Shown here piece after piece: positions 41,118 to 58,982 of a stretch of 64,000 bases of DNA. Under the pieces are notes generated by a model that saw nothing but the letters and a program-made list of their open reading frames with translations, did not search any database and was not told the DNA's origin. The translations under genes and the position numbers were made by a program. Within the stretch, counting starts at the first letter, position 1; every line of letters begins with the position of its first letter. The stretch lies in IMG/VR virus record IMGVR_UViG_3300027666_000001. One strand, 5' to 3'. The DNA comes from a virus.

Positions 41118-41831
41118 CTACATGCTGAGCAGGACCAGAAGTGCGTTGGAGGCCATCGCCACCCCGATCGCCGGTCCCTTCTCTGCGGCCGACCCGGAGG
41201 AGACGGATCCCCCCAAGAGCCGGATGTTCCACCAGCGCTTGCCCTGGATGGTCATCGGCCAGAACGCCGGAACACCGGCAGTCGTGCAGCCGTCGGCCAC
41301 CACGTGACTTGCATATCCGCCGGTCACGGCCAGCGCCATCAGCCAAGGGTCCAGGTAGATCACCGATCCGACGGCCGCCACGGCGGCGCCGAGGACGACC
41401 AAGCCGATGGTCTTCCGGTACAGCGGCCAGAGCATGAAGACTCCGAACGCAGCCAGCGCCCCACAGGCGATGGGGGAGACTATCGCCAGAACGTAGGCCA
41501 GGGCTCCCGTCGCCACCGAGGCGAGCAGGGTATGCGTCAGGGTCCGGTGGTACGGGTCCTGACCCCGGGCCTTCCGGAAAGTCAGGTAGCTCCGGTCGCG
41601 ACCGAGCGCCGTCCCCTTCACGGCCGCCTTGCACAGGCTGTGGACAACCTTGTGGACAGGCTTGCCGAGAGCCTTCGTGGCGCAGGCGTTGGGGTGATCC
41701 AGGTCGGGCATCAGGGAGAAGCCCGCTGAGACCGCCGCCATCACCGCGCCCTGAAGGACGCTGACGTGCTGAGTGAGCACGAGACCTGCCGGTGCCGAGG
41801 CTCCGATCGCCGCGTGCACCGACCCCTTCAC
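41118..41831 (-). CDS. membrane-bound metal-dependent hydrolase (YdjM/DUF457-like, 237 aa)
   Basis: Multi-TM with PDLDHP, HRTLTHT and HVVADG His/Asp motifs. GTG 41831 in a GTGA overlap. Confidence 0.5.
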   Translation of the reverse strand: MKGSVHAAIGASAPAGLVLTQHVSVLQGAVMAAVSAGFSLMPDLDHPNACATKALGKPVHKVVHSLCKAAVKGTALGRDRSYLTFRKARGQDPYHRTLTHTLLASVATGALAYVLAIVSPIACGALAAFGVFMLWPLYRKTIGLVVLGAAVAAVGSVIYLDPWLMALAVTGGYASHVVADGCTTAGVPAFWPMTIQGKRWWNIRLLGGSVSSGSAAEKGPAIGVAMASNALLVLLSM

Positions 41832-42157
41832 CGAATCGCCTTGGCGTTCAGCACTCGACGGTCGTGCCGGGCGTTGGCGATGAAGGTCTCGGCGGCCACC
41901 CATTCGCCGCTGTCGTAGGTTCCCTGCCAGGTGAAGTCCTGGAGCGAGTTCGGCGCGTCGAGGATCGTCTCGTCGTCGGCCGGGCCGAGCGTCAGGGCGA
42001 TCTCCATGCGGTCGATCTGGAGCTTGTCGGTCGACAGGGGGAGGTCCAGCATGTCCTCCCAGGCCAGCTCCAGGACCACCTTCCGCATACGGCTGAGCGG
42101 CTTCAGCAGTTCGACCTCGATCGTGATGACGCCAGCCCGCTTGGTGTTCTTCGTCAT
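41828..42157 (-). CDS. hypothetical protein (109 aa)
   Basis: ATG behind GGAAAGGAAGAAGGG SD. Confidence 0.6.
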   Translation of the reverse strand: MTKNTKRAGVITIEVELLKPLSRMRKVVLELAWEDMLDLPLSTDKLQIDRMEIALTLGPADDETILDAPNSLQDFTWQGTYDSGEWVAAETFIANARHDRRVLNAKAIR

Positions 42158-42225: not shown

Positions 42226-42717
42226 TCAGCCCATCTGTCGCGCGAGGAGCAGGTACATCTCGCTGTCGGGGCGCTTGTCGTCGAAGGCGAAGGCCGCCTC
42301 GGTGATCTCCTCGATCGACTTGCCCTGCTTGGCGAGTTTCACCAGCTCGACGCGCTCCTGCGCCATCTCCATGATCACGCTCTCGGTGATGGACATCTTC
42401 GTCGCCGGGTCCTGGCCGCGCTCCACCGCGTCGTCGTGCAGCTTCTCCCAGGCGGGGAGGTTCTTGCGGTAGTGCGCCTGCATCAGGGCCACGAACCAGG
42501 GGGACCGGTTGCGGCTCTCGGCGACGAAGAGTTCGGCCAGCTTGCGGTCGACCTTCTCCTCGGTCACCTCACCTTCGATTCGAAGGGCCGCTTCGAAGCC
42601 CTTCACGGCCAGAGAGATGGCCGTCTCGCGGTCGATGCCGAACTGCTTCATCGACTGACGCAGCATGTCGTCCGGCGTGCCGAGACTGGGTTCCACGTGC
42701 TTCTCCGTTTCCGTCAC
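42226..42717 (-). CDS. hypothetical protein (163 aa)
   Basis: GTGA overlap at 42714-42717. High GC3. Confidence 0.65.
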   Translation of the reverse strand: MTETEKHVEPSLGTPDDMLRQSMKQFGIDRETAISLAVKGFEAALRIEGEVTEEKVDRKLAELFVAESRNRSPWFVALMQAHYRKNLPAWEKLHDDAVERGQDPATKMSITESVIMEMAQERVELVKLAKQGKSIEEITEAAFAFDDKRPDSEMYLLLARQMG

Positions 42718-43010
42718 TTCTCGATGTCGCCGGACTGTTCGGCCCGGCGTTTCTCGTCCTCGGCGAAGGCCAGTTCACAGAGGGTGTAATCGCCGATCCC
42801 GAGGTGACCGCCCTCGGGCCGCTCGATCTGGGCATACACCCGGAGCCGATTGCCGCCCTCCTTGTATTCGGCGTCGACCACCTGCTCCAGGGCCGACTTC
42901 AGGCTCGGCGCCTCCAGGGTGATCTCATCCCGCTCCAGGCCGACGACCCGGGTCGGGTCGCCCGCGACGGGCCTTGTCCTGCGCCATACGCGCACCGTGT
43001 GTTCAGCCAT
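42714..43010 (-). CDS. hypothetical protein (98 aa)
   Basis: TGATG junction at 43010. Confidence 0.6.
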   Translation of the reverse strand: MAEHTVRVWRRTRPVAGDPTRVVGLERDEITLEAPSLKSALEQVVDAEYKEGGNRLRVYAQIERPEGGHLGIGDYTLCELAFAEDEKRRAEQSGDIEK

Positions 43011-43609
43011 CAGGCCACCCTCGTCGCTCCGAAGTAGTCGTTCATGTAGTGCACGTTGTTGACGCGAATCTTCGTTCCGGTCCGTGGCGCATGCAGCATC
43101 TTGCCGCCGCCGATGTAGATGCCGACGTGATGGATCGAGCGCGAGTTCCCTTTCTGGCCGAAGAAGACCAGGTCGCCCGGCTTCAGATCATCCCAGGAGG
43201 GGTGGTTGCTGGTCGTGTTGTACTGGTCGTTCGCGACTCGGGGGATCTTGATTCCCGCCTTCGCGTATGCCGCCTGGGTCAGGCCGGAGCAGTCGAACCG
43301 ACCGCCCTCGGCGGCCGTTCCGGTACCTCCCCACAGGTAGGGAACTCCGATCTTCGTACGGGCGTATGCGATGGCCACCGCCGCCGCGTCGCCGGACCTG
43401 GAGCTGGAGACCTTGGTGTCCTGCTCCTGCCGCTTCGCCTCCTTGGCGCGCTGCTCCGGCGAGTACCAGTTGATCTTCTCGATCTCCGGGTTGGGGTTCG
43501 CCGTGGCGTTCGAGATCGGGGCTGCCTTGAGGGCGGCACAGGATGACGTGACTGGCACGAGCAGCGCCACGGAGGCGACCGCCAGGGCCGCTCGCTGGGT
43601 CCGGTTCAC
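43010..43609 (-). CDS. secreted NlpC/P60 peptidoglycan endopeptidase (199 aa)
   Basis: GTG 43609 in a GTGA overlap. Signal peptide ending VTSSC (possible lipobox). Catalytic DCSGL and HHVGIY motifs. Confidence 0.75.
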   Translation of the reverse strand: MNRTQRAALAVASVALLVPVTSSCAALKAAPISNATANPNPEIEKINWYSPEQRAKEAKRQEQDTKVSSSRSGDAAAVAIAYARTKIGVPYLWGGTGTAAEGGRFDCSGLTQAAYAKAGIKIPRVANDQYNTTSNHPSWDDLKPGDLVFFGQKGNSRSIHHVGIYIGGGKMLHAPRTGTKIRVNNVHYMNDYFGATRVA

Positions 43610-44241
43610 TGCTCGTACTTCCTCGTCTTCTGCTCGATGATCTTCACATAGTTGTACGTCTCGCAGCGGGCGAACGAACACGGCGGAACGCCGTTGTACT
43701 GCTGCACCCGGAAGCCGCCCGCGTTGTACCCGGCGAGCATGTTCTTCCAGGTGGGTCCCGGAATGTCCTTGAGTCCCTTCGCGAGCTTGCAGTCCAGGCT
43801 CGCGGCCGACGGGATCGCGTCCTCGGGGTCGTACTTGTTCCGCTTGCCGTCCCCGTTGGCGTCGATCCCCTCGGTCGCCCAGGTTCCGTCGATGAACTGA
43901 GCCATCCCCTTCGCGGAGGCCGGAGAGTCCAGGCGCCCGTCGATGACCTCGGGCTTGAAGCCCATGCTTTCCTGGTCGAGCTGGGCCGCGAGAAGGGCCG
44001 GGGTCAACGTCTTGCACTTGTTGCCCCACTTGTTGATCAGCTCCTCCCAGCGCTTCTTCGGAACCGAGCCGGGCTTGATCGGTGCGGAGGTGCCGGTGAA
44101 CTTGTAGTCCTGGCTGGCCTCCTGCTTCGGGGGTGCCGCGACGGACGCAGCAGACGGGACCGCCGGAATGAAACCGGTGACGGCCTGAACTGCTCCAACC
44201 GCGAAAAACACACCGACGAATGCTCCGCCCGCTCTGCGCAT
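43606..44241 (-). CDS. secreted lytic transglycosylase (SLT domain, 211 aa)
   Basis: ATG 44241 behind GGAGAAGGGAGGAAC SD. N-terminal TM/signal. Motifs QESMGF, AKGMAQF and AGYNAG. Confidence 0.7.
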   Translation of the reverse strand: MRRAGGAFVGVFFAVGAVQAVTGFIPAVPSAASVAAPPKQEASQDYKFTGTSAPIKPGSVPKKRWEELINKWGNKCKTLTPALLAAQLDQESMGFKPEVIDGRLDSPASAKGMAQFIDGTWATEGIDANGDGKRNKYDPEDAIPSAASLDCKLAKGLKDIPGPTWKNMLAGYNAGGFRVQQYNGVPPCSFARCETYNYVKIIEQKTRKYEQ

Positions 44242-44266
44242 CACGTTCCTCCCTTCTCCGGGCTCC

Positions 44267-44304
44267 ACTCTAACATTGACCTAGGCCAGCCAACAAGGCG
44301 AACC
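44267..44304 (-). promoter_or_regulatory. promoter candidate TTGTTG-18-TAGAGT with GGCCTAGGtC palindrome in the spacer (site S3)
   Basis: The minus strand reads GGTTCGCCTTGTTGGCTGGCCTAGGTCAATGTTAGAGTGGAG, 26 nt upstream of ATG 44241. Confidence 0.5.
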
Positions 44305-44324
44305 TGCAACGGAGTTGAAACGCA

Positions 44325-44358
44325 GAACGGCCGGACCCCGTGAAGGGCCCGGCCGTTC
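44325..44358 (-). terminator. hairpin after membrane-protein gene
   Basis: GAACGGCCGG...CCGGCCGTTC (10-bp arms with an inner 3-bp extension), 13 nt after the stop at 44371. Confidence 0.5.
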
Positions 44359-44370
44359 GAACCGCCCACC

Positions 44371-44949
44371 TCAGTGGAACGGGCTCTGCATGAGCTGCGG
44401 GATCCAGTTGCCGATCTGGAGCGTGATCTCGGCCCAGGTGCCACCGCCGAGCGGGAAGAAGAACCCGCAGACGGCGCCGTACATCAGATCCTGCTTGTCG
44501 TCGTCCTTGTTCCGCATCGCGAGGAATCCGAGGAAGAGGCAGATGCCCCCGGCTCCGATGTCGGACAGGACCGGCCAGTCGGACAGCGCCATGACGAGAC
44601 CCTGGAACCAGTCGACCAGGTCGACGACGAACCCACCGGTCGAGCTGACGATCGACGTCATGGCCCACATTCCTACGAGGAATGTCATTGCGGACCGCCA
44701 GTCGAACCCTTCGCTCGGACCTCCGTGAACCTTCGTCATCATGCGGCTGGTCGGCTGCTGCACAGCCTTGGTCATCAGCGCCTTGGTCAGCCCGCCCCAG
44801 AGGAACATCTGCTGACCCTTCTTGTTCCCCTTGATGCAGAGGAACGAGAGCACCAGCAGGATGATTCCGAAGCCCGCCATCGTGGTGTGACCGATCCACG
44901 AGTTCTCCGGAACCTCGATCTGCTGCTGCTGCGTAAGTGCCAGAATCAC
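44371..44949 (-). CDS. polytopic membrane protein (192 aa)
   Basis: GTG 44949 behind GGAAGGTGAGGG SD. At least four hydrophobic helices. Confidence 0.65.
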   Translation of the reverse strand: MILALTQQQQIEVPENSWIGHTTMAGFGIILLVLSFLCIKGNKKGQQMFLWGGLTKALMTKAVQQPTSRMMTKVHGGPSEGFDWRSAMTFLVGMWAMTSIVSSTGGFVVDLVDWFQGLVMALSDWPVLSDIGAGGICLFLGFLAMRNKDDDKQDLMYGAVCGFFFPLGGGTWAEITLQIGNWIPQLMQSPFH

Positions 44950-44965
44950 TTTTCCCTCACCTTCC

Positions 44966-44995
44966 CTGTGGGGCCACCCTCCAGCGGCCCCACAG
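44966..44995 (-). terminator. perfect 10-bp hairpin CTGTGGGGCC-10 nt-GGCCCCACAG
   Basis: Begins 3 nt after an in-frame second stop (44998) of the upstream gene frame and ends 17 nt before GTG 44949. Confidence 0.55.
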
Positions 44996-45174
44996 ATTCA
45001 CCGGCCGGGACCGGCGGGCCGAAGTACCGGCAGCCCGTCGAGGTCGTCGTCCTTCTGGAACACGACTCGTCCCCTTTCCAAGCGGCTCGTTCGTCCGCTT
45101 CGTACCTCCGGCCGGATGCGAACCGGCTTCCAGCGGTAGCTGGGCTGCCACTCGGCAGCGAAGGCCCTCGTGCA

Positions 45175-46137
45175 TCACCAGGCGGCGCCCGGTGCGTAGA
45201 GCAGGATCCCCGTGACGATCGACGCCAGTGGGATCATGAGCACGGCGTGGAAGATGCCCGGCCCCATGCTCTGGGACTTCTCGCGCTCCTCCTCCGACAT
45301 GGCCGACCGCTCGTGGTTGAGCCGTTCGATCCGGTCGAAGACCCACATGGTCATGTAGAACGCCATGCAGAACAGACCGGCGACCCAGAACTGCCACATC
45401 TGGAAGGTCCACGGTGACCCGAAGACCGCCGTCACCTCGTCGGGATACGAGACCCCCACGAAGAACAGGATCGGGACCAGCCACGCCGAGCGCGTCAGCC
45501 ACCTGATGCTGAAGGTGACCATTCGTCCCCGGTACGTGCTCTGGGCCAGGTATCCGGCGACCTGGTTCCGGGTGAACATGAGGAACATGGGGGCGAGCCC
45601 CATGACCGCCGCCCAGATCAGGCTGCCGAGCCGGTCCGACTCGTACGCCATGCCGATCGTGTCCCTGAACCACCTGCCAGGACCGTTCAGGATTCCCCAT
45701 CCGGTGGTCGAGGTGCCGAAGCGGATTCGCTCGTACAGAGCGGTCAGAATCTGCGGTCCGACAGCCCACGACATCACCGAGGAGATCATGAACGAAGTGA
45801 CGTACGGCCGGGTCTTTCCGTTGGCCGGGTCCAGCCCGTTCTTGATGGCGGCGGCAGCCGCCTGAACCGGCTTCATCACTTCGGCCGCGAGCTTCTTCTC
45901 CTCTGCGGCCTTTTCCTTGACAGGGGCCAGGATCTTTTCGGCCTCCTGGCGTACCTTTTCCTTCTTCTCTTCCGCCTTGCCCTGACTCTCAGTCCACCGA
46001 GTGGTGGCCGAGCCTAGCTTCCCCTTCAATGCCTTGAGGTCGCCCTTCAGGGTCCGTGGCGGCTTCCGCTTCCGGCCCTTGAGGTGCACGGTGGGGGCCG
46101 TCTTCGGCTTCGGCGGAATGGCTGCCTTCGTCGCCAC
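45175..46137 (-). CDS. polytopic membrane protein with Lys-rich N-terminus (320 aa)
   Basis: GTG 46137 behind GGAAGGAGAGAC SD. Five to six TM helices. See the finding on the in-frame extension past TGA 45175. Confidence 0.7.
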   Translation of the reverse strand: MATKAAIPPKPKTAPTVHLKGRKRKPPRTLKGDLKALKGKLGSATTRWTESQGKAEEKKEKVRQEAEKILAPVKEKAAEEKKLAAEVMKPVQAAAAAIKNGLDPANGKTRPYVTSFMISSVMSWAVGPQILTALYERIRFGTSTTGWGILNGPGRWFRDTIGMAYESDRLGSLIWAAVMGLAPMFLMFTRNQVAGYLAQSTYRGRMVTFSIRWLTRSAWLVPILFFVGVSYPDEVTAVFGSPWTFQMWQFWVAGLFCMAFYMTMWVFDRIERLNHERSAMSEEEREKSQSMGPGIFHAVLMIPLASIVTGILLYAPGAAW

Positions 46138-46152
46138 GTCTCTCCTTCCGTG

Positions 46153-46317
46153 TTACGGCTTTCCATCGGAAGCGAGTCCGATGTTGGCCTCTACGGTTGC
46201 CTCCAATCGGGCGATATCCTGGTTGGCAGCGAAGTCAGAAAGCTGCCCGAGAGTCGCTTCCGGCACGGGCCGATCATGCGACGCAACCGGCTCCTGAACC
46301 TCCCCGTTACCTTCCAT
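46153..46317 (-). CDS. hypothetical acidic protein (54 aa)
   Basis: ATG 46317 behind GAAGAGAGGGTGGC SD. First gene divergent from the GntR-type regulator. Confidence 0.5.
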   Translation of the reverse strand: MEGNGEVQEPVASHDRPVPEATLGQLSDFAANQDIARLEATVEANIGLASDGKP

Positions 46318-46371
46318 GCCACCCTCTCTTCGGTCTCTGCTGGCGTTGTGGAGTCCAGCATGACACAATAC

Positions 46372-46381
46372 GGCCTAGGCC
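46372..46381. promoter_or_regulatory. perfect GGCCTAGGCC palindrome in divergent promoter region (site S4)
   Basis: Lies 24 nt upstream of the regulator start (46405) and 55 nt upstream of the leftward start (46317). Confidence 0.55.
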
Positions 46382-46404
46382 ACAAGCGAACGCGAGGAGA
46401 AAAA

Positions 46405-47139
46405 GTGAGCGAGCAGATTCCCAAGTACCGTGCCATTGCGGCACATTACCGATCCAGGATCACCTCTGGTGAGCTGGCGCCGGGTACTCCGCTGGAGTCG
46501 CGCCGCAGGCTCGCCAAGACCCACAAGACGTCGCGCGTCACCATCGACAAGGTCGTGGAACTGCTGACGGCTGAAGGGGTCCTGGAGCCGTCCAGCGGCA
46601 ACCGGCCGCCCGTCGTGGCGGACATCTCGGGCCGCACGGCCACGGTTCAGGACCGGGTCGGGAACTACGCGGCAAGCGGCCGGGCGCTCGGCGCCCGGGA
46701 GACCTCGGAGATCCTTCGGGTCGAGACGGTTCCATGCCCTGCCGAGATCGCCACCGCGCTGGGGGTCGAACCGGGTGAGGGCGTCGTCTACCGGGAGCGC
46801 CTGAACCGGATCGACGGCAAGCCGGTCGCCACCGGGCACTCGTACTACCCGCCCGAGGTGACGGCCGTGACCCCCGAGCTGGCGATGGCGGAGGCCACGC
46901 CGCGCGGTTCGCGCGAGCTGGCCGCCGAGCGCATGGGATCCCGACAGAAGGACCTGATCCCCGTCATCACGTCGCGACTGGCGACCGACCGGGAGCGGGA
47001 GCTTCTGGAACTCAAGGGCGCGTACGCGATCGTCACGCAGACGGCACGCCGGGTCCTGCTGGCCAATGGCAAGGTCGTCGAAGTCGCGGTGAAGGTCTGC
47101 GAGGGCAACCGGCCGGTCTCGTTCCACGTGCCCCTGTGA
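46405..47139 (+). CDS. GntR-family transcriptional regulator (HutC-like, UTRA-type C-terminal domain, 244 aa)
   Basis: GTG behind AGGAGAAAAA SD. N-terminal IPKYRAIAAHYRSRITSGELAPGTPLESRRRLAKTHKTSRVTIDKVVELLTAEGVL matches the GntR wHTH pattern. Confidence 0.75.
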   Translation: MSEQIPKYRAIAAHYRSRITSGELAPGTPLESRRRLAKTHKTSRVTIDKVVELLTAEGVLEPSSGNRPPVVADISGRTATVQDRVGNYAASGRALGARETSEILRVETVPCPAEIATALGVEPGEGVVYRERLNRIDGKPVATGHSYYPPEVTAVTPELAMAEATPRGSRELAAERMGSRQKDLIPVITSRLATDRERELLELKGAYAIVTQTARRVLLANGKVVEVAVKVCEGNRPVSFHVPL

Positions 47140-47160
47140 GGACCCCATGCGGATGTGCAG

Positions 47161-47190
47161 AGCCCCCGTTGCAACGGTGCGACGGGGGCT
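47161..47190. terminator. bidirectional hairpin between convergent genes
   Basis: AGCCCCCGT-12 nt-ACGGGGGCT followed by TTTCG on the plus strand. Confidence 0.55.
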
Positions 47191-47199
47191 TTCGCATGC

Positions 47200-47925
47200 T
47201 CAGGGCTCGATCAGTTTGAAGGCGTCCTCGCCTCTGGCCAGCTCCTCTTTCATCGACTCGTAGTCCTCGTGCCTGCGTTGCGGATACAGCCAGATCAGGT
47301 GCGCCCGCATGTCGTCGTTCCAGCCTCGTTCGGTCTCGTCGTCGACCTTGATGCACTCGGCCGGACTGACTCCGTACAGCCAGGTGAGCGCACCGAAGCC
47401 GATCCAGTGCCGCTGGCCGTCGTTGACAGAGGTGATCCACCCGGGGACGACGGCGTACTTCTTGCCCGTCAGGCCGCGAGGATAGAGCGGGTAGTCACTG
47501 GGCTCCTGCTCTTGCCCTTCCGTCCGCCGCGCCACCTGATGCGCCCGTGAACCCGTCTCGCCGAACGGCCTGAAGGGCACACGGCGCTTCGCCTCCAGTC
47601 GCCCGTCATCAGGAAGCCAGCCCTCGGGGATCGGCTTCCAGTCCTTGTCGGTCTTCCTCCTCTCGGGGTCCCACAGCTTCGCCCCTCCGGCCTTCAGCCA
47701 GCTCCGGATGTCGGAGAGGTACGTGGAGGAGAAGACGATCTGGCGGCGGTGCCGGTCGAGTGCGGAGAATCTGGTGTCGATCACCCACCAGCAGCCGAAC
47801 TCCGGCTTGCCGTCTTCGGCGTCCGAGTAGTACGCCTCGACGATCAGATGGTCGTGACCGTGCACCTGGTACTTCTTGTCGTACTTCCCGGTCGACGGGA
47901 GGCGGTGCAGCAGCGGTTCAGCCAC
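47200..47925 (-). CDS. hypothetical protein (241 aa)
   Basis: GTG 47925 overlaps the upstream stop by 8 nt (GTGGCTGA). High GC3. Confidence 0.6.
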   Translation of the reverse strand: MAEPLLHRLPSTGKYDKKYQVHGHDHLIVEAYYSDAEDGKPEFGCWWVIDTRFSALDRHRRQIVFSSTYLSDIRSWLKAGGAKLWDPERRKTDKDWKPIPEGWLPDDGRLEAKRRVPFRPFGETGSRAHQVARRTEGQEQEPSDYPLYPRGLTGKKYAVVPGWITSVNDGQRHWIGFGALTWLYGVSPAECIKVDDETERGWNDDMRAHLIWLYPQRRHEDYESMKEELARGEDAFKLIEP

Positions 47926-48577
47926 TGGCCGCCACCACGTTCCCGCTGAGATCCACGAGAGCCACCTGAGCGGGGGCCTTCTTCGCGGCGAACTCGACGG
48001 TTCCGGTCGCCGTCTCGCCGGGCTCGACCCGGCGAGAGCCGGGGGCCAGCGTTCCCTCACCGATGACGGCCGGGCGACCGTCGCCCTTCACCATCGACGA
48101 CATGACCACCACGGTCTCGTCGGTGTCGTTCACGACCGTCACCTTCACGATGGCGCCGACCGTGCCGGAGCCGTCGGGTACGGCAGTGAGGGTGACCACC
48201 TTCGGCTTCTGCGGAGCGGGCGTCTGAGATGCCTCGGCCCGGTCCTGCGCACCTTCGGAGGGACCTCCACCGGCAGCAGGGGGGAACTGCTCAGCGGAAG
48301 ACGACGAGGATCCGCCAGGGGTTTCGGCCGGATTCGAGCCGTCGTGCGGCATGACAGTGAAGACCAGAACCCCTACGGCAGCAGCACCGGCCGCTCCGAG
48401 AAGAAGGCTCTTACGCCGATCCGGCTTCTGCGGATTCGGCTCTTCCTGCCGAACTGGAGGATCGGGCGGAGGGGCGGGCATCGACGGTGCGGGTTCCGGA
48501 TCCCACCCGATGGCCGGTTCCACGCGAACCGGCTCACCCTCCTGTTGCGGTGCAGACGTGTTCCACCAGTCGGTCAC
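47918..48577 (-). CDS. membrane-anchored protein with extracytoplasmic beta-rich domain (219 aa)
   Basis: GTG 48577 in a GTGA overlap. Single TM LLLGAAGAAAVGVLVFTV, then a Pro/Ser linker and a V/T-rich domain. Confidence 0.6.
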   Translation of the reverse strand: MTDWWNTSAPQQEGEPVRVEPAIGWDPEPAPSMPAPPPDPPVRQEEPNPQKPDRRKSLLLGAAGAAAVGVLVFTVMPHDGSNPAETPGGSSSSSAEQFPPAAGGGPSEGAQDRAEASQTPAPQKPKVVTLTAVPDGSGTVGAIVKVTVVNDTDETVVVMSSMVKGDGRPAVIGEGTLAPGSRRVEPGETATGTVEFAAKKAPAQVALVDLSGNVVAASG

Positions 48578-49193: not shown

Positions 49194-50354
49194 TCAGCCC
49201 TGGTTCATCCAGCTCGCGAGACCGTTCTCGACGAACCACTCCAGCGGGAAGGCGGTGGTCGCCTCGGTCACCCGGGGGGCGCCCGTCTGGTTGGCCTTCG
49301 CGAAGGCGGCCTTGGTGATGCCGCCCTCGGCCGCGTCGGCGGCGTAGTAGCGGGCCGCCAGGTTCACCTTCCGGCGCTCGGCGTCGGTCAGGTTCAGGCC
49401 GTCCAGGCTGATGCCCTCCGCGTCGTCCTCCTCCTCGAAGGAAACGCCGCCCTTGGTGAGCTGCGGCCGGGAGACCTGCCCCTGGATGACGTTGAAGCCG
49501 AGGTCCAGCGGAGCCCGCAGACGCAGTTCCTGCTCGGCGTCCATCCGCTCCAGGCTGATGCCCTGCTGGCTGCGCAGGGTCTCGATCTGGAGTCGCGCGT
49601 TGAGCTGCTGACGCATCAGCTTGGTCTCGGCCTCGCCCTCCAGCTTGGCCTTCTCCAGTTCGAACTGGGCCTGCTGCTCCAGCTTCTTGCGCTCGATCTC
49701 GGCCTGGACCTTCTCGTGCTCGATGGCCGCCAGGCGCCGCTGCTCAGCCAGGGCCGCCTCGTGCTCGCGGTTCTTCAGGATCATGTCGGCCTCGTGCTGC
49801 TCGGCGGTCGCCTCGGCGTCGGCCCGGGTGAGGCGGGACTTCCGCTTCTTCGCGGCCATCTGCGCCTTCTCGTCGTCGGTCAGGTCGCTCGGGTCCTTCA
49901 GGCCGTTCAGGGCCATCGTCCACGTGAGCTTCGTGAAGACCGGGAGGACCGCCGCGAACCCCGCCGCGCCGCCGCCGATCGTCGTTCCGTGGTAGCCGAG
50001 CAGACCGGCGACGAACAGGGCCTCGACCCAGCCGATGACCGGCAGGAAGTCGAAGGGCTTCTTCCTCTTGGGCAGCTTGCCCATCAGCTTCTGACCCTGG
50101 TACTGGGCCACCATCGTCGCGCTCCAGACGACGTCCATCGTCGCGGCGGCCGAGAGGGAGATCAGGCTGAGCCCGCCCAGCTTGTCGATGGTGAGCGCGT
50201 CGACCTTGTACAGGTCGATGAAGGACCAGGTGCTCCAGGCGAGGGAGCCGATCGAGAGGATGCTCGCCATCAGAACCAGAACGGAGAAACGCTTCGGACC
50301 GTCCTCGTCGATGTCGACCTTTGCGACCTTCTCGTTGTTTTCCGTCTTGTCCAT
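49194..50354 (-). CDS. membrane protein, 4 TM plus long coiled coil (DUF2637-like topology, 386 aa)
   Basis: Four N-terminal hydrophobic helices, then an EQ/K-rich coiled coil. GGGAGAAACCCAGAC SD. Confidence 0.6.
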   Translation of the reverse strand: MDKTENNEKVAKVDIDEDGPKRFSVLVLMASILSIGSLAWSTWSFIDLYKVDALTIDKLGGLSLISLSAAATMDVVWSATMVAQYQGQKLMGKLPKRKKPFDFLPVIGWVEALFVAGLLGYHGTTIGGGAAGFAAVLPVFTKLTWTMALNGLKDPSDLTDDEKAQMAAKKRKSRLTRADAEATAEQHEADMILKNREHEAALAEQRRLAAIEHEKVQAEIERKKLEQQAQFELEKAKLEGEAETKLMRQQLNARLQIETLRSQQGISLERMDAEQELRLRAPLDLGFNVIQGQVSRPQLTKGGVSFEEEDDAEGISLDGLNLTDAERRKVNLAARYYAADAAEGGITKAAFAKANQTGAPRVTEATTAFPLEWFVENGLASWMNQG

Positions 50355-50419
50355 GTCTGGGTTTCTCCCTTTCCGAAAACCCCCGGTTTTGGAAACCTCG
50401 CTTGGGGGCGTTAGGCATG

Positions 50420-50449
50420 ACTGTGCCAGCGTGGCCTAGGCCGTGTCAA
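50420..50449 (-). promoter_or_regulatory. promoter candidate TTGACA-18-CACAGT with perfect GGCCTAGGCC in the spacer (site S5)
   Basis: The minus strand reads GGTTCGCTTGACACGGCCTAGGCCACGCTGGCACAGT. Palindrome at 50433-50442. Confidence 0.5.
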
Positions 50450-53816: not shown

Positions 53817-54035
53817 TCACACCGTCTCGATACGGGTCACGCGGTAGAGGCCCGCGTAGATCTCGCGTGCCGCCTCCGCGTCGTCCACATCGTCCAGCTC
53901 GACCAGGAAGGTGTGATGCTCGCCCGTCACGTCGGTGCAGAGCTTGCCGTTGACCGGGCACGGGCCGGTCTTCTTCTCGCGCGGGTTGTGCTCAGGGTTC
54001 TTCGCGAGCCGTACCGTGACCAGGAACTGTGCCAT
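53817..54035 (-). CDS. hypothetical protein (72 aa)
   Basis: TGATG junction at 54035. High GC3. Confidence 0.6.
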   Translation of the reverse strand: MAQFLVTVRLAKNPEHNPREKKTGPCPVNGKLCTDVTGEHHTFLVELDDVDDAEAAREIYAGLYRVTRIETV

Positions 54036-54502
54036 CAGCCGTTCACCCGGCCGATGTAGACCTTCCGGCCGCCGTACTTGTACTCGGAGATCGGGGCGAC
54101 GACGACCTTGTAACCCCGGTAGGAACCGGAGTTGGCGTTCAGGATCTTGTCCCCGCCGACGTAGATGCCCACGTGCTTGATGTTGCCGGACGAGGTGCCG
54201 AAGAACACCAGGTCACCCTTGGCGCGCTTGCTCCACGAGATCTTCGAGGACTTGTTGTACTGGCCCTGGGCGGTGCGCGGCAGCGTCTTGCCGTTCTTCT
54301 TGTACGAGTAGTACGTCAGGCCCGAGCAGTCGTAGGCGTTCGGACCGGCGGCGCCGTCCCTGTAGGGGTCCCCCTTCTGGGCGGTGGCCGTACTCAGGGC
54401 CTTCGTCCGTATCGGAGTGGCCGCACTGGCACTGGGCGCCACGGTCAGCATGATCCCTCCCGCGAGCGCGGTGGACAGGGCGACGGTGGTGAGCTTCTGC
54501 AT
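54035..54502 (-). CDS. secreted NlpC/P60 peptidoglycan endopeptidase, second copy (155 aa)
   Basis: ATG 54502 behind AAGGAGAAGCACC SD. Signal peptide ...APSASA. DCSGL and KHVGIY motifs. Confidence 0.75.
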   Translation of the reverse strand: MQKLTTVALSTALAGGIMLTVAPSASAATPIRTKALSTATAQKGDPYRDGAAGPNAYDCSGLTYYSYKKNGKTLPRTAQGQYNKSSKISWSKRAKGDLVFFGTSSGNIKHVGIYVGGDKILNANSGSYRGYKVVVAPISEYKYGGRKVYIGRVNG

Positions 54503-54537
54503 GGTGCTTCTCCTTGGATTCCGAGATTCTTCTGGAT

Positions 54538-56944: not shown

Positions 56945-57052
56945 GGTCAATCCCCTTTCCTAGAAACAGTATTGCAGGAAAGTGGGAAGTTGTCGAGTCG
57001 CTTCTTCGTAGATTCGTGCGAAGCTATGACCATCACACGGAGGGAGGAACCC

Positions 57053-58153
57053 GTGTCTACACCGATGAGCGCAGCCAGATTTCTGGCCGCTCTGAAGGCG
57101 GAAGGTGTCGAGGTTGTCGAGGTCGGCAACTGGGAGACGCACAACCGCAACAGCAAGGGACCGTGGGGCGCCGTGCACGGTGTGATGATCCATCACACCG
57201 TCACCAGCGGTACCCAGAACACCGTCAATATCGTGAACAACGGCTACTCCGGCCTGCCCGGTCCGCTCTGTCACGGCATGATCGCCAAGAGTGGCAAGGT
57301 CTACCTGGTTGGCTACGGCCGTGCCAACCACGCGGGCCTCGGCGACCCGGACGTGCTCCAGGCGGTCATCGACGAGCGCTCGGCGCCCGCCGACAACGAG
57401 GCCACCGTGGACGGCAACAGGGCCTTCTACGGCTTCGAGTGCGAGAACCTGGGCAACGGTAAGGACCCCTGGCCCGCAGCCCAGCTCGAAGCCATCGAGC
57501 GGGTCTCCGCCGCGATCTGCCGGTACCACGACTGGGGCTCGCTCTCGGTCATCGGCCACAAGGAGTGGCAGCCCGGCAAGGTGGACCCGCTGGGATTCAC
57601 CATGGACTCCATGCGTGCGCGCGTGCGCTCGCGCCTGGGGACCGATCCCAACAAGCCGACCCCGCCGCCGTCCACCGGCACCACGTACACCGTGAAGCCC
57701 GGTGACACGCTGAGCGGGATCGCGAAGGCTCTGGGCGTGACGGTCGACGCCCTGTACGCGGCCAACAAGGACAAGATCAAGAACAAGAACGAGATCTTCC
57801 CCGGTCAGGAGCTGACGATCCCCAAGGGATCCGGTCTGCCGAAGCCGCAGAAGCCGAAGGTGGACCTGTCGCAGCTCATCGCGGCTGCCAAGTCCGACCC
57901 CAAGGCGTCGGGACAGCCGGTCACGTACGCCGGAACGAAGACGGTCGAGGCCGCCCTGGTCGACGAGGGGCTGCTGGCGAAGACCTACCTGGACGGGCAC
58001 TTCGGCACGACGACCGTCGAGGCGTACCGCAAGTGGCAGCTCAAGCTGTATCCGGGCGCCAGTACGGCTCCGGGTGGTGCAGCAGACGGCATACCCGGGA
58101 ACGACAGTCTCACTAGGCTCGGCGAGAAGCACGGTTTCACCGTCGTCGCGTGA
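57053..58153 (+). CDS. endolysin: N-acetylmuramoyl-L-alanine amidase (Amidase_2/PGRP) + LysM + PG-binding-like C-terminus
   Basis: GTG behind GGAGGGAGGAAC SD. Amidase block VMIHHT...GYGRANHAG...GHKEW. LysM YTVKPGDTLSGIAKALGV. C-terminal GHFGTTTVEAYRKWQ. Confidence 0.85.
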   Translation: MSTPMSAARFLAALKAEGVEVVEVGNWETHNRNSKGPWGAVHGVMIHHTVTSGTQNTVNIVNNGYSGLPGPLCHGMIAKSGKVYLVGYGRANHAGLGDPDVLQAVIDERSAPADNEATVDGNRAFYGFECENLGNGKDPWPAAQLEAIERVSAAICRYHDWGSLSVIGHKEWQPGKVDPLGFTMDSMRARVRSRLGTDPNKPTPPPSTGTTYTVKPGDTLSGIAKALGVTVDALYAANKDKIKNKNEIFPGQELTIPKGSGLPKPQKPKVDLSQLIAAAKSDPKASGQPVTYAGTKTVEAALVDEGLLAKTYLDGHFGTTTVEAYRKWQLKLYPGASTAPGGAADGIPGNDSLTRLGEKHGFTVVA

Positions 58154-58548
58154 CCACGAAAGGTGGCCCAATGAAGATCTTCGGCAGAGAGCCGGTGTAC
58201 ATCCTGGCCTTCATCGCCGTCGCGCTGAAGCTGGCGTCGGCGTACGGCCTGGACGTATCCGACGAGATGCAGGGCGCCATCATGGCTTTCCTCAGCCTGG
58301 TGGTCGCGCTCGTCGAGGCGGTCGTCCTGAAGACGGGCGCCGTCGGTGCGGCCGTGATCAACCTGGCACAGGGCGGACTGGCCCTGTTCCTCGCCTTCGG
58401 GCTGGAGATGAGTGCCGAGCAGCAGGCCCTGTGGATGCTGATCGTCGAGAGCGCGGTCGCGCTGTGGCTCCGTGAGAAGGTCACGGCGCCCGTCGTCTCC
58501 GTACCGATCGAGCAGAAGGCGCCCGCAGCCTTCAGCCGGGCGGCCTGA
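58150..58548 (+). CDS. holin-like membrane protein (132 aa; alternative ATG 58171)
   Basis: GTGA overlap with the endolysin stop. Three to four TM helices. Confidence 0.6.
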   Translation: MTTKGGPMKIFGREPVYILAFIAVALKLASAYGLDVSDEMQGAIMAFLSLVVALVEAVVLKTGAVGAAVINLAQGGLALFLAFGLEMSAEQQALWMLIVESAVALWLREKVTAPVVSVPIEQKAPAAFSRAA

Positions 58549-58982
58549 TGGCCACGGCGATCCGGCGGCTGTACAAGAGGCTGGGTCGCCGTGGCACCGC
58601 ACTCGTACTCCTGGGGCTGGGCAAGATCTGCTTCGGCCTGGGGTACGCCCTCGATCCGGGCCCGAGCCCGGTTGGCTTGGGACTCCTCAACAGGCATGGC
58701 GGCGTTCAGTGCTGGTCGTCGGTCTGGATCATCTGCGGATCCATCACCTTCGGGTGCGCGTGGCTCCGCATCGGGAGGGATTGGCTCGGTTTCTTCACCG
58801 CGCTGATCCCTCCCCTGGTGTGGGGTTCCACGTTCCTCTGGAGTGCGGTCTCCGGCGACTATCCCAGGGGGTTCGCCCTCGCCGCGTGGTACGCGATAAG
58901 CCATGTCGGCATCATTCTGTGGGCCGCGTCAGTACCCGAGTACTCCGTGCCCCGCCAGACCCTCCAGAAGGAGCGAAGATGA
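58548..58982 (+). CDS. membrane protein, lysis-cassette associated (144 aa)
   Basis: TGATG junction. Four predicted TM helices. Confidence 0.6.
   Translation: MATAIRRLYKRLGRRGTALVLLGLGKICFGLGYALDPGPSPVGLGLLNRHGGVQCWSSVWIICGSITFGCAWLRIGRDWLGFFTALIPPLVWGSTFLWSAVSGDYPRGFALAAWYAISHVGIILWAASVPEYSVPRQTLQKERR

Follow-up and report, generated by a model that had tools for sequence, protein, structure and literature searches.

Streptomyces grows as a branched, compartmented mycelium, within which plasmids spread by means of TraB and Spd proteins and through which the travel of phages is poorly understood. Every conjugative plasmid of Streptomyces codes for a GntR repressor (TraR/KorA), and traB and traR form a kil-kor pair (Thoma et al., 2015; PMC4447253). 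TraR binds between traR and spdB3, the genes under its probable control are spdB3-spd79-spdB2-orf108-traB, and the Spd proteins are without characterised homologues (PMC4447253). Here we analyse a comparable arrangement in viral DNA, namely IMG/VR record IMGVR_UViG_3300027666_000001, of which a stretch of 64,000 nucleotides was studied (the window). At positions 43010-47139 of the window, the gene of a GntR-type regulator faces five leftward genes that encode a small protein, two polytopic membrane proteins of 320 and 192 amino acids (aa), a lytic transglycosylase (SLT) and an NlpC/P60 peptidase (P60). A sequence-only reading of the window had called this set a kil/kor-like module.

Protein comparisons give good support to the view that this is a conserved block of cluster-BM Streptomyces phages, built largely from the kinds of gene that conjugative Streptomyces plasmids use for DNA transfer. 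They support equally well a division of the block into three parts, which are a TraR/KorA-type GntR repressor, a divergent set of one small and two membrane proteins, and a separately promoted SLT-P60 pair. As to function, we give about even credence to the complete explanation that we favor, in which this plasmid-type block would bring about a regulated, local opening of the cell wall and so promote spread within the mycelium.

Over positions 43010-47139, the DNA is 91% identical to that of Streptomyces phage Frankenweenie and about 80% identical to that of the cluster-BM phages Satis, Kradal, JustBecause, Kela, EhyElimayoE and Quantum. Phages of cluster BM are siphophages with prolate heads and genomes of 184-200 kb, which are reported to be lytic and to lack integrase and repressor (PMC6687918, PMC10652959). 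The plasmid connection is absent from the public annotations of these phages, and a literature search brought up no functional studies of cluster-BM phages or of Tra-like genes in phages. All six open reading frames (ORFs) were present at the positions first given for them, and Pfam agreed with the gene content that had been read from the sequence. Among 15 related loci, drawn from assemblies and viral contigs, 14 kept the order in which the regulator faces (small ORF)-320-192-SLT-P60, and this order persisted where identity of the 320-aa protein fell to 32%. The most distant locus (L003, 28% identity and lower G+C) retains the regulator and the two membrane proteins; its SLT-domain gene is of another type, and P60 is absent. 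One search for related loci among bacterial assemblies gave a single match, on a phage-sized scaffold.

The regulator has an N-terminal GntR domain (Pfam E = 3e-7) and a C-terminal UTRA domain (E = 4e-17), and falls in the HutC/PhnF group of NCBIfam with scores below the curated cut-offs. Its best matches among 72,556 plasmids were full-length GntR proteins of Streptomyces plasmids (40-44% identity, E = 1e-35 to 3e-38, 140-148 bits), and 238 of the 381 plasmid records that matched it were from Streptomyces. At the three plasmid loci inspected, the GntR gene was divergent from an operon of small and membrane proteins, including DUF2637 proteins, and one of these operons also encoded a “transfer protein”. 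The regulator is 32% identical to KorA of pIJ101, which is itself divergent from tra-spdA-spdB-kilB. The analogy first drawn with the GntR-type Kor repressors of Streptomyces plasmids and actinomycete integrative conjugative elements (AICEs) is thus borne out at the level of the protein. A search of PDB gave DasR with 38 bits and NagR with 31 bits, far below the plasmid GntR matches. In some relatives, two adjacent GntR/UTRA paralogues take the place of the single regulator (L004:5973-7753 and L005:8219-9759).

The wall hydrolases lead to plasmids as well. The N-terminal half of Streptomyces plasmid proteins annotated as “bifunctional lytic transglycosylase/C40 family peptidase” shares 47-53% identity with SLT. 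In a local tblastn against one such protein, SLT residues 65-208 corresponded to its N-terminal half (50% identity) and P60 residues 72-197 to its C-terminal half (47.5% identity). Because the alignment is collinear, the phage pair is best read as a split copy of a plasmid transfer hydrolase, and relative to the plasmid fusion the P60 half has acquired a lipoprotein signal of its own and a linker of some 70 aa. On the plasmids, this gene directly follows one for FtsK/SpoIIIE in an operon that diverges from a GntR gene, and downstream of it is encoded a 729-aa protein with weak AAA_10/TraG-P-loop matches, possibly a VirB4-like ATPase. The early comparison of the phage pair with CwlT and PrgK was therefore an apt one. 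SLT and P60 are split in the same way in every relative that holds both genes. Outside cluster BM, the best phage match to SLT was YomI of SPbeta, with 32% identity.

Both enzymes carry features expected of exported, active hydrolases. The most likely SLT start is the ATG at 44241, which has a ribosome-binding site and agrees with the Frankenweenie annotation; a longer ORF reaching 44268 is unlikely to be used because it overlaps a promoter-like site. From this start, the protein begins with MRRAGG and continues with a Gly/Ala-rich hydrophobic segment that would act as a signal or anchor peptide. The lipobox of P60 is VTSSC in the window and a canonical LTGC or VGC in relatives. The catalytic Glu-Ser motif of SLT (DQES) and the catalytic motifs of P60 (DCSG, HHVGIY and LHAP) can be read intact in the sequences. 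As had been noted, the two genes are coupled by a GTGA overlap, in which the GTG start of P60 overlaps the SLT stop codon (43606-43608). The SLT-domain gene is labelled “glycosyltransferase” in seven of the seven deposited cluster-BM genomes, which is probably a naming slip, since the domain is that of a lytic transglycosylase.

In NCBIfam, P60 was nearest to endopeptidases of the RipA/B/C type, with every score below the curated cut-off, and in mycobacteria RpfB and RipA are a known case of a transglycosylase cooperating with an NlpC/P60 enzyme. The exported phage pair might accordingly mimic Rpf-RipA and manipulate host development, stimulating neighboring spores or hyphae to germinate or grow and making them susceptible to infection. 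However, the SLT domain is of the GH23/SLT type and closest to plasmid hydrolases, not of the Rpf type. P60 is a predicted lipoprotein and SLT is probably membrane-anchored, so that diffusion to neighboring cells is unlikely, and the membrane proteins would have no role. We regard this explanation as highly improbable.

A further conceivable use for exported hydrolases is lysis itself, on which the genome layout bears. According to a map of third-position G+C in the genes of the window, combined with the Frankenweenie annotation, the plus strand carries structural genes up to about 22 kb and is followed by a long minus-strand arm with polA, primase/helicase, DnaE-like and helicase genes. The block lies within this arm, with helicase, primase and polA to its left, and the regulator is the only plus-strand gene inside it. 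The annotated endolysin, holin and membrane-protein cassette is separate (about 56972-58982, plus strand), some 10 kb from the block and on the opposite strand, and the block was thus rightly placed outside the lysis cassette from the start. Another NlpC/P60 protein is encoded at 54035-54517 on the minus strand (Pfam E = 2.9e-23), with a classical signal peptide (MQKLTTVALSTALAGG...ASAATP). Counting the endolysin, the phage has at least four wall hydrolases, three of which carry their own export signals.

The SLT-P60 pair might, in these circumstances, be auxiliary to lysis. The exported enzymes would pre-digest the hyphal wall before or alongside the endolysin, with the membrane proteins as holin-like or regulatory partners, and plasmid ancestry would be merely historical. 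Export signals together with intact catalytic motifs in both enzymes fit this explanation, as does the Gly/Ala-rich SLT anchor, which resembles that of signal-anchor-release endolysins. The additional exported NlpC/P60 protein suggests a broad investment in wall digestion, and PHROG places related domains in lysins and tail lysins. Against it, a complete endolysin, holin and membrane-protein cassette exists elsewhere in the genome, whereas the block sits among replication genes and under a repressor-type regulator. In addition, the membrane proteins match no holin family, and the enzymes are closest to plasmid transfer hydrolases, not to phage lysins. We consider an auxiliary lysis function unlikely, although it deserves real weight. 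Under the explanation that we favor, the same enzymes would open the wall for spread and not for the final lysis.

The third link to plasmids lies in the 320-aa protein, whose two final helices and tail (VFDR...IPLAS..LLYAPGAAW) are similar to the C-terminal end (LDRR...IPLAT..LLYAPGAL) of an uncharacterised Streptomyces plasmid family encoded two or three genes into a GntR-divergent operon. Profile-profile comparison with hhalign gave a probability of 60% (E = 9e-5) with the close family and 92% (E = 6e-7) with the broadened one, where unrelated membrane families used as controls gave E = 0.4-0.55, and hmmsearch gave this match E = 1.4e-5. Alignment of 22 homologues showed that GPGRWFRD and the C-terminal tail IPLAS..LLYAPGAAW are invariant in the 320-aa family. 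In the 192-aa family, the N-terminal QQQ..PE.SW.G and a PLGGG in the last helix are invariant. By the positive-inside rule, GPGRWFRD and the PGAAW tail would lie on the outer face of the membrane, where the exported hydrolases are expected to act.

Apart from this C-terminus, the two membrane proteins appear to be specific to the phage lineage. The counts of five and four transmembrane helices were obtained by reading the sequences, and an automatic 19-residue hydropathy scan flagged two in each protein at threshold. AlphaFold2 models were all-helical, with a predicted local distance difference test (pLDDT) of 72.5 for the 320-aa and 75.2 for the 192-aa protein. The 73 homologues of the 320-aa protein were essentially all on phage-sized contigs or short metagenomic fragments, and an exhaustive profile search found only 42 clusters of this family among 1.84 billion representatives; the 42 homologues of the 192-aa protein were likewise on phage-sized contigs and short metagenomic fragments. 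Neither protein matched any family in Pfam, PHROGs, NCBIfam or PADLOC, holin families in Pfam and PHROG included, and Pfam found no recurrent domain in 33 distant members of the 320-aa family. Searches of PDB sequences with profiles of both proteins returned nothing, tblastn of both against the 72,556 plasmids gave no match, and Foldseek with both AlphaFold2 models, as the sequence-only reading had proposed, found no match in PDB or BFVD at E <= 0.001. When compared by hhalign, the 320-aa family and either SpdB of pIJ101 or a DUF2637 protein gave probabilities below 1%, a weak test in that SpdB is without a Pfam model.

Membrane proteins of this kind could also form a barrier to superinfection or entry exclusion, which, perhaps with some wall remodelling, would stop the entry of DNA from other phages or conjugative plasmids. 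Exclusion genes are common on conjugative elements, and the two polytopic proteins are lineage-specific and fast-evolving in the manner typical of conflict genes; within one relative they were 32-34% identical, while the hydrolases were 46-48% and the regulator 51% identical. Against a barrier, PADLOC gave no defence or exclusion match for eight of the eight proteins tested, and no exclusion family was matched. It would moreover leave two exported hydrolases with conserved catalytic motifs unexplained. These phages are reported to be lytic (PMC10652959), so that a long-term barrier would be of little benefit. We hold such a barrier to be very improbable. The reading that we prefer assigns the membrane proteins to the same local process as the hydrolases. 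The coordinates of the block and of its control elements are collected in Table 1.

Table 1. Features of the plasmid-like gene block and its surroundings; positions are those of the window.
Feature	Positions	Strand	Description
Gene block	43010-47139	five genes -, regulator +	Six genes, five leftward and one regulator; window 65% G+C
NlpC/P60 (C40) peptidase	43010-43609	-	199 aa, GTG start; Pfam NLPC_P60 E = 1.6e-28
SLT, predicted exported lytic transglycosylase	43606-44241	-	211 aa; Pfam SLT E = 3.3e-9
Promoter-like site before SLT	44267-44296	-	TTGTTG, 18-nt spacer, TAGAGT; palindrome GGCCTAGGTC (44278-44287) in spacer
192-aa polytopic membrane protein	44371-44949	-	Four predicted transmembrane helices
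Structured spacer between 320-aa and 192-aa genes	44950-45174	-	225 nt, conserved, several predicted hairpins
320-aa polytopic membrane protein	45175-46137	-	Lysine-rich N-terminal helical region of about 110 aa, then five predicted transmembrane helices
Small acidic ORF	46153-46317	-	54 aa from ATG with good ribosome-binding site; no hydrophobic segment
Divergent control region (candidate)	46339-46386		48-nt block; perfect palindrome GGCCTAGGCC (46372-46381) and flanking inverted CCACAA half-sites
GntR/HutC-type regulator	46405-47139	+	244 aa; N-terminal GntR helix-turn-helix, C-terminal UTRA effector domain
Hairpin, bidirectional terminator-like	47161-47190		Between convergent ends of regulator gene and gene 47200-48060
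386-aa neighbor, possibly co-regulated (gene and promoter-like site)	49194-50442	-	About four N-terminal transmembrane helices and long coiled-coil, read from sequence

The control elements suggest how the three parts of the block are tied together. The 48-nt block at 46339-46386 lies within the 87-nt divergent region and is almost invariant where the flanking proteins are only 50-70% identical, and its palindrome GGCCTAGGCC is at the same place in Frankenweenie and three other relatives (L001, L002, L004 and L005). It may serve the regulator gene and the leftward genes as a common promoter and operator, to which the regulator would bind. The promoter-like site before SLT keeps its architecture in L004 and L005, with TTGCTA or TTGTTA, a palindrome and a TAnnnT hexamer. 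Before the gene of the 386-aa neighbor, TTGACA and CACAGT are separated by 18 nt with GGCCTAGGCC in the spacer (50433-50442), and the same holds before the L004 and L005 homologues. The three promoter-like sites of the envelope genes have in common an extended motif, GTTCGCTTG, followed by the palindrome. A generic sigma-70 scan called no promoter, and terminator-like sites were no commoner than in shuffled sequences, so the promoter proposals come from conservation only.

Since SLT has a conserved promoter-like site of its own, the leftward genes are not demonstrably one operon, and the earlier description of them as such is doubtful. SLT-P60 is probably a transcription unit separate from the p54-p320-p192 unit. 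The terminator-like hairpin beyond the regulator (-36.6 kcal/mol, z = -6.7 versus shuffled sequences) would shield the block from upstream minus-strand transcription, and the leftward genes therefore probably need a promoter of their own.

The palindrome is not confined to the block. In the window, CTAG occurs 14 times against about 200 expected from base composition, a depletion of about 14-fold, and six of the 14 belong to the palindrome family, with no or one mismatch to GGCCTAGGCC (25188, 30979, 44278, 46372, 50433 and 55046). All six are on the minus-strand arm; five of them precede genes, and the sixth is within the 3' end of a gene. Over 191 kb of Frankenweenie, at least 16 CCTAGG-core sites and about ten GGCCYRGGCC variants are distributed over both arms; they are mostly intergenic, inside a promoter spacer or right after a -10-like hexamer. 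The palindrome and these variants mark 25 or more places there that are intergenic and look like promoters. The possibility that GGCCTAGGCC is a block-specific operator was rejected, because it or close variants occur at at least 16 promoter-proximal Frankenweenie sites. The palindrome looks like a phage-wide promoter or operator signature, and its genome-wide use makes the regulator probably a phage-wide one rather than a dedicated Kor. In the intergenic regions next to the plasmid GntR genes most similar to that of the phage there are perfect CTAG-centred palindromes as well (GCGCTACTAGTAGCGC, GCTAGTACTAGC and three copies of ACCTTCCTAGGAAGGT), and by analogy with the plasmids it is plausible that the phage palindrome is the operator for this GntR clade.

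Two smaller elements of the membrane-protein unit are also conserved. The small acidic ORF, which is annotated in Frankenweenie in a shorter, 43-aa version, has a C-terminal part of about 35 aa that tblastn found conserved in nine relatives; it matched no family in NCBIfam or PADLOC. In the structured spacer, an alignment of five relatives showed compensatory changes at 11 of the 59 predicted pairs, and the last hairpin (CTGTGGGGCC..GGCCCCACAG) stands just before the ribosome-binding site of the 192-aa gene. The Frankenweenie annotation has “tRNA-SeC(tca)” at this place (L001:22091-22163), a call that ARAGORN reproduces in Frankenweenie. In the window ARAGORN found no tRNA anywhere, and Rfam had no match within 42500-47500. 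The spacer is perhaps not a true tRNA but a tRNA-like or processing element.

A conjugation-type reading raises the question of a DNA translocase. The sequence-only reading had seen no FtsK-, VirB4- or VirD4-like gene, and the Frankenweenie annotation likewise lists none in the part equivalent to the window. Outside it, about 24 kb to the right of the block, Frankenweenie gene 156 is annotated as an “FtsK-like DNA translocase” (record positions 95424-96725; L007:2913-4214). Its 433-aa product is 31% identical to Tra of pIJ101 (E = 2e-30) and 38% identical to Tra of a S. californicus plasmid (E = 2e-54). All cluster-BM phages have this homologue, and related viral contigs carry it at a similar distance from the block. 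Other Streptomyces phages carry Tra-like genes without the hydrolase block, and related genes are found near the genome end in Streptomyces phages Mischief19, TP1604, YDN12 and Xkcd426. A search for clt-like 8-mer repeats near the phage tra-like gene showed nothing conspicuous.

Taken as a whole, the explanation to which we give about even credence would work as follows. The repressor would bind the CTAG-centred palindrome where this overlaps the core promoter of the regulator gene, of the membrane-protein unit, of the hydrolase pair and of the 386-aa neighbor, and probably also at a dozen other phage promoters. A small molecule bound by the UTRA domain would release these promoters. The membrane proteins would then insert in the hyphal membrane with their invariant motifs toward the wall, and the hydrolases would leave the cell by the Sec and lipoprotein pathways, independently of a holin, to cut glycan strands and peptide stems beside the membrane proteins. 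The outcome would be a local and controlled opening of the peptidoglycan, such as VirB1- and CwlT-type enzymes make for conjugation channels. More speculatively, this opening could let phage DNA or progeny cross the hyphal cross-walls or the thick wall and spread within the mycelium. The anchor-less Tra-like ATPase may contribute, and the process would be separate from the final lysis by endolysin and holin. Spread is the function that we favor not only because the identifiable parts come from DNA-transfer systems, but also because the Tra homologue has been kept and a normal lysis cassette exists elsewhere.

In a bolder version, a lytic jumbo phage would have domesticated the plasmid machinery as a set, with a Kor-type repressor, Spd-like proteins, a CwlT-like hydrolase and a Tra-like translocase. 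Its genomes would cross cross-walls and infect neighboring compartments without an extracellular virion, and the repressor might sense wall fragments through its UTRA domain. We consider this version distinctly unlikely.

Several findings weigh against the transfer-type explanation, even in its more cautious form. Neither membrane protein appears to have a detectable homologue of known function, the plasmid link of the 320-aa protein is limited to its last 50 residues or so, and the 192-aa protein is without any plasmid link, as no significant match came from hhalign of its family with the 150-aa plasmid proteins encoded at the corresponding place. The palindrome stands at many promoters and may serve another DNA-binding protein or be a general promoter element. 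No translocase or ATPase is found among the proteins encoded at 43010-46317, and no VirB4-like ATPase was seen in the phage annotation, whereas the clusters of the fused plasmid hydrolase possibly have one (a weak match). The phage Tra-like protein has a Walker A motif and a C-terminal helix-turn-helix and lacks the membrane segment of plasmid Tra; being 24 kb away and anchor-less, it can be tied to the block only by a guess. Finally, the flanking genes, which encode the 386-aa protein, a YdjM-like protein and a 164-aa protein, are as syntenic as the block, so that conserved order by itself is no proof of a functional unit.

The last point leads to the explanation that there is no functional unit at all. 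The genes would be neighbors by descent in a syntenic genome, the regulator would be a transcription factor for the phage in general, and hydrolases and membrane proteins would work independently of each other. The genome-wide palindrome, the promoter-like site that SLT-P60 has for itself and the distant locus with a different SLT and no P60 are all in line with this, as is the synteny of the flanks. It sits poorly with the fact that the regulator, the hydrolase and the 320-aa C-terminus each point to GntR-facing transfer operons of Streptomyces plasmids, and that the three promoters with the extended motif and the palindrome serve exactly the envelope genes. We thus judge mere neighborhood quite improbable, and retain a plasmid-type unit for wall opening as the preferred explanation.

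Some observations concern the surroundings and carriers of the block. The 386-aa protein matched nothing in Pfam and resembled neither DUF2637 nor SpdB. Immediately downstream of the block, a YdjM-family inner-membrane protein is encoded at 41118-41903 on the minus strand (Pfam E = 1.3e-16; PHROG “hydrolase”), and this gene is retained by all relatives, including the most distant one. In the latter, a protein with a Streptomyces subtilisin-inhibitor (SSI) domain is encoded a few genes upstream of the block (L003:5335-5760). Another viral contig, L019 (IMGVR_UViG_3300023097_000002, 72,269 bp), is 96-100% identical to the window in the proteins of the whole block and possibly represents the same phage. 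BM-like phage-sized contigs also occur within Streptomyces assemblies, namely L016 (Streptomyces cucumeris NEAU-Y11 scaffold14, 185,382 bp) and L005 (Streptomyces sp. NPDC058947, 252,977 bp). They hint at a carrier state, pseudolysogeny or contamination of cultures, despite the strictly lytic description of these phages.

If the preferred explanation is true, the homologues of the plasmid repressor, wall hydrolase and translocase kept by this phage lineage suggest that the plasmid solution to spread through a mycelium may be taken over by phages, and bacterial viruses would then have a novel means of spread. Otherwise, the locus still offers two very small, conserved membrane-protein families with genetic linkage to wall hydrolases, a clear instance of genes passing from conjugative plasmids to a lytic phage, and a candidate phage-wide regulatory motif that is easily tested. 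It also corrects the public annotation from “glycosyltransferase” to lytic transglycosylase.

Among the known systems with which the block can be compared, phage lysis cassettes with secreted or signal-anchored endolysins share the holin-independent export signals of the hydrolases and the adjoining membrane-protein genes. They differ in that the block lies in the replication arm under a repressor, that a canonical cassette exists separately, and that no holin family is matched. The regulators DasR of Streptomyces and NagR/YvoA of Bacillus combine, like the phage protein, a GntR helix-turn-helix with a UTRA domain, and use a palindromic operator with a central TA; the DasR site is TGGTCTAGACCA, which the phage palindrome resembles. 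Their similarity to the phage regulator is nevertheless much weaker than that of the plasmid GntR proteins (38 and 31 versus 140-148 bits).

The bifunctional hydrolase of Streptomyces plasmids has the same two catalytic domains as the phage pair, glycosidase then peptidase, is exported or membrane-anchored, and is encoded with membrane proteins under a divergent GntR gene. It is one polypeptide, whereas the phage version is made from two translationally coupled genes, and its gene adjoins one for FtsK/SpoIIIE, while the phage pair is without an adjoining FtsK/SpoIIIE- or VirB4-type ATPase gene. CwlT of ICEBs1, TcpG of pCW3 and PrgK of pCF10 are functionally equivalent wall hydrolases of Gram-positive conjugation systems. 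For the Spd proteins of Streptomyces, tested with SpdB and DUF2637, no sequence relation to the phage membrane proteins was detected.

The kil/kor loci of Streptomyces plasmids such as pIJ101 and pSVH1, the latter with traR facing spdB3-spd79-spdB2-orf108-traB, come closest in organization. They share with the phage block a GntR repressor divergent from small and polytopic membrane proteins, palindromic or repeated intergenic sites and a homologous regulator; a Tra homologue exists in the phage lineage, and the plasmid family that matches the 320-aa C-terminus occurs in such operons. The differences are that the phage is lytic, with a genome of 185-200 kb, and is neither plasmid nor AICE, that its 192-aa protein and most of its 320-aa protein are without plasmid counterpart, and that its candidate operator is used genome-wide. 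In the plasmids, the FtsK-like translocase (TraB/KilA) belongs to the repressed unit, whereas that of the phage lies outside, 24 kb away and anchor-less. Of the kil/kor label proposed at first, the GntR kinship and the divergent layout stand; the candidate operator is probably not a dedicated one, and a TraB/KilA translocase is not in the block. Because the translocase is outside the unit, the block should not be filed as kil/kor. It resembles kil/kor loci in its regulator, its layout and its probable ancestry, and kil/kor behavior itself is putative.

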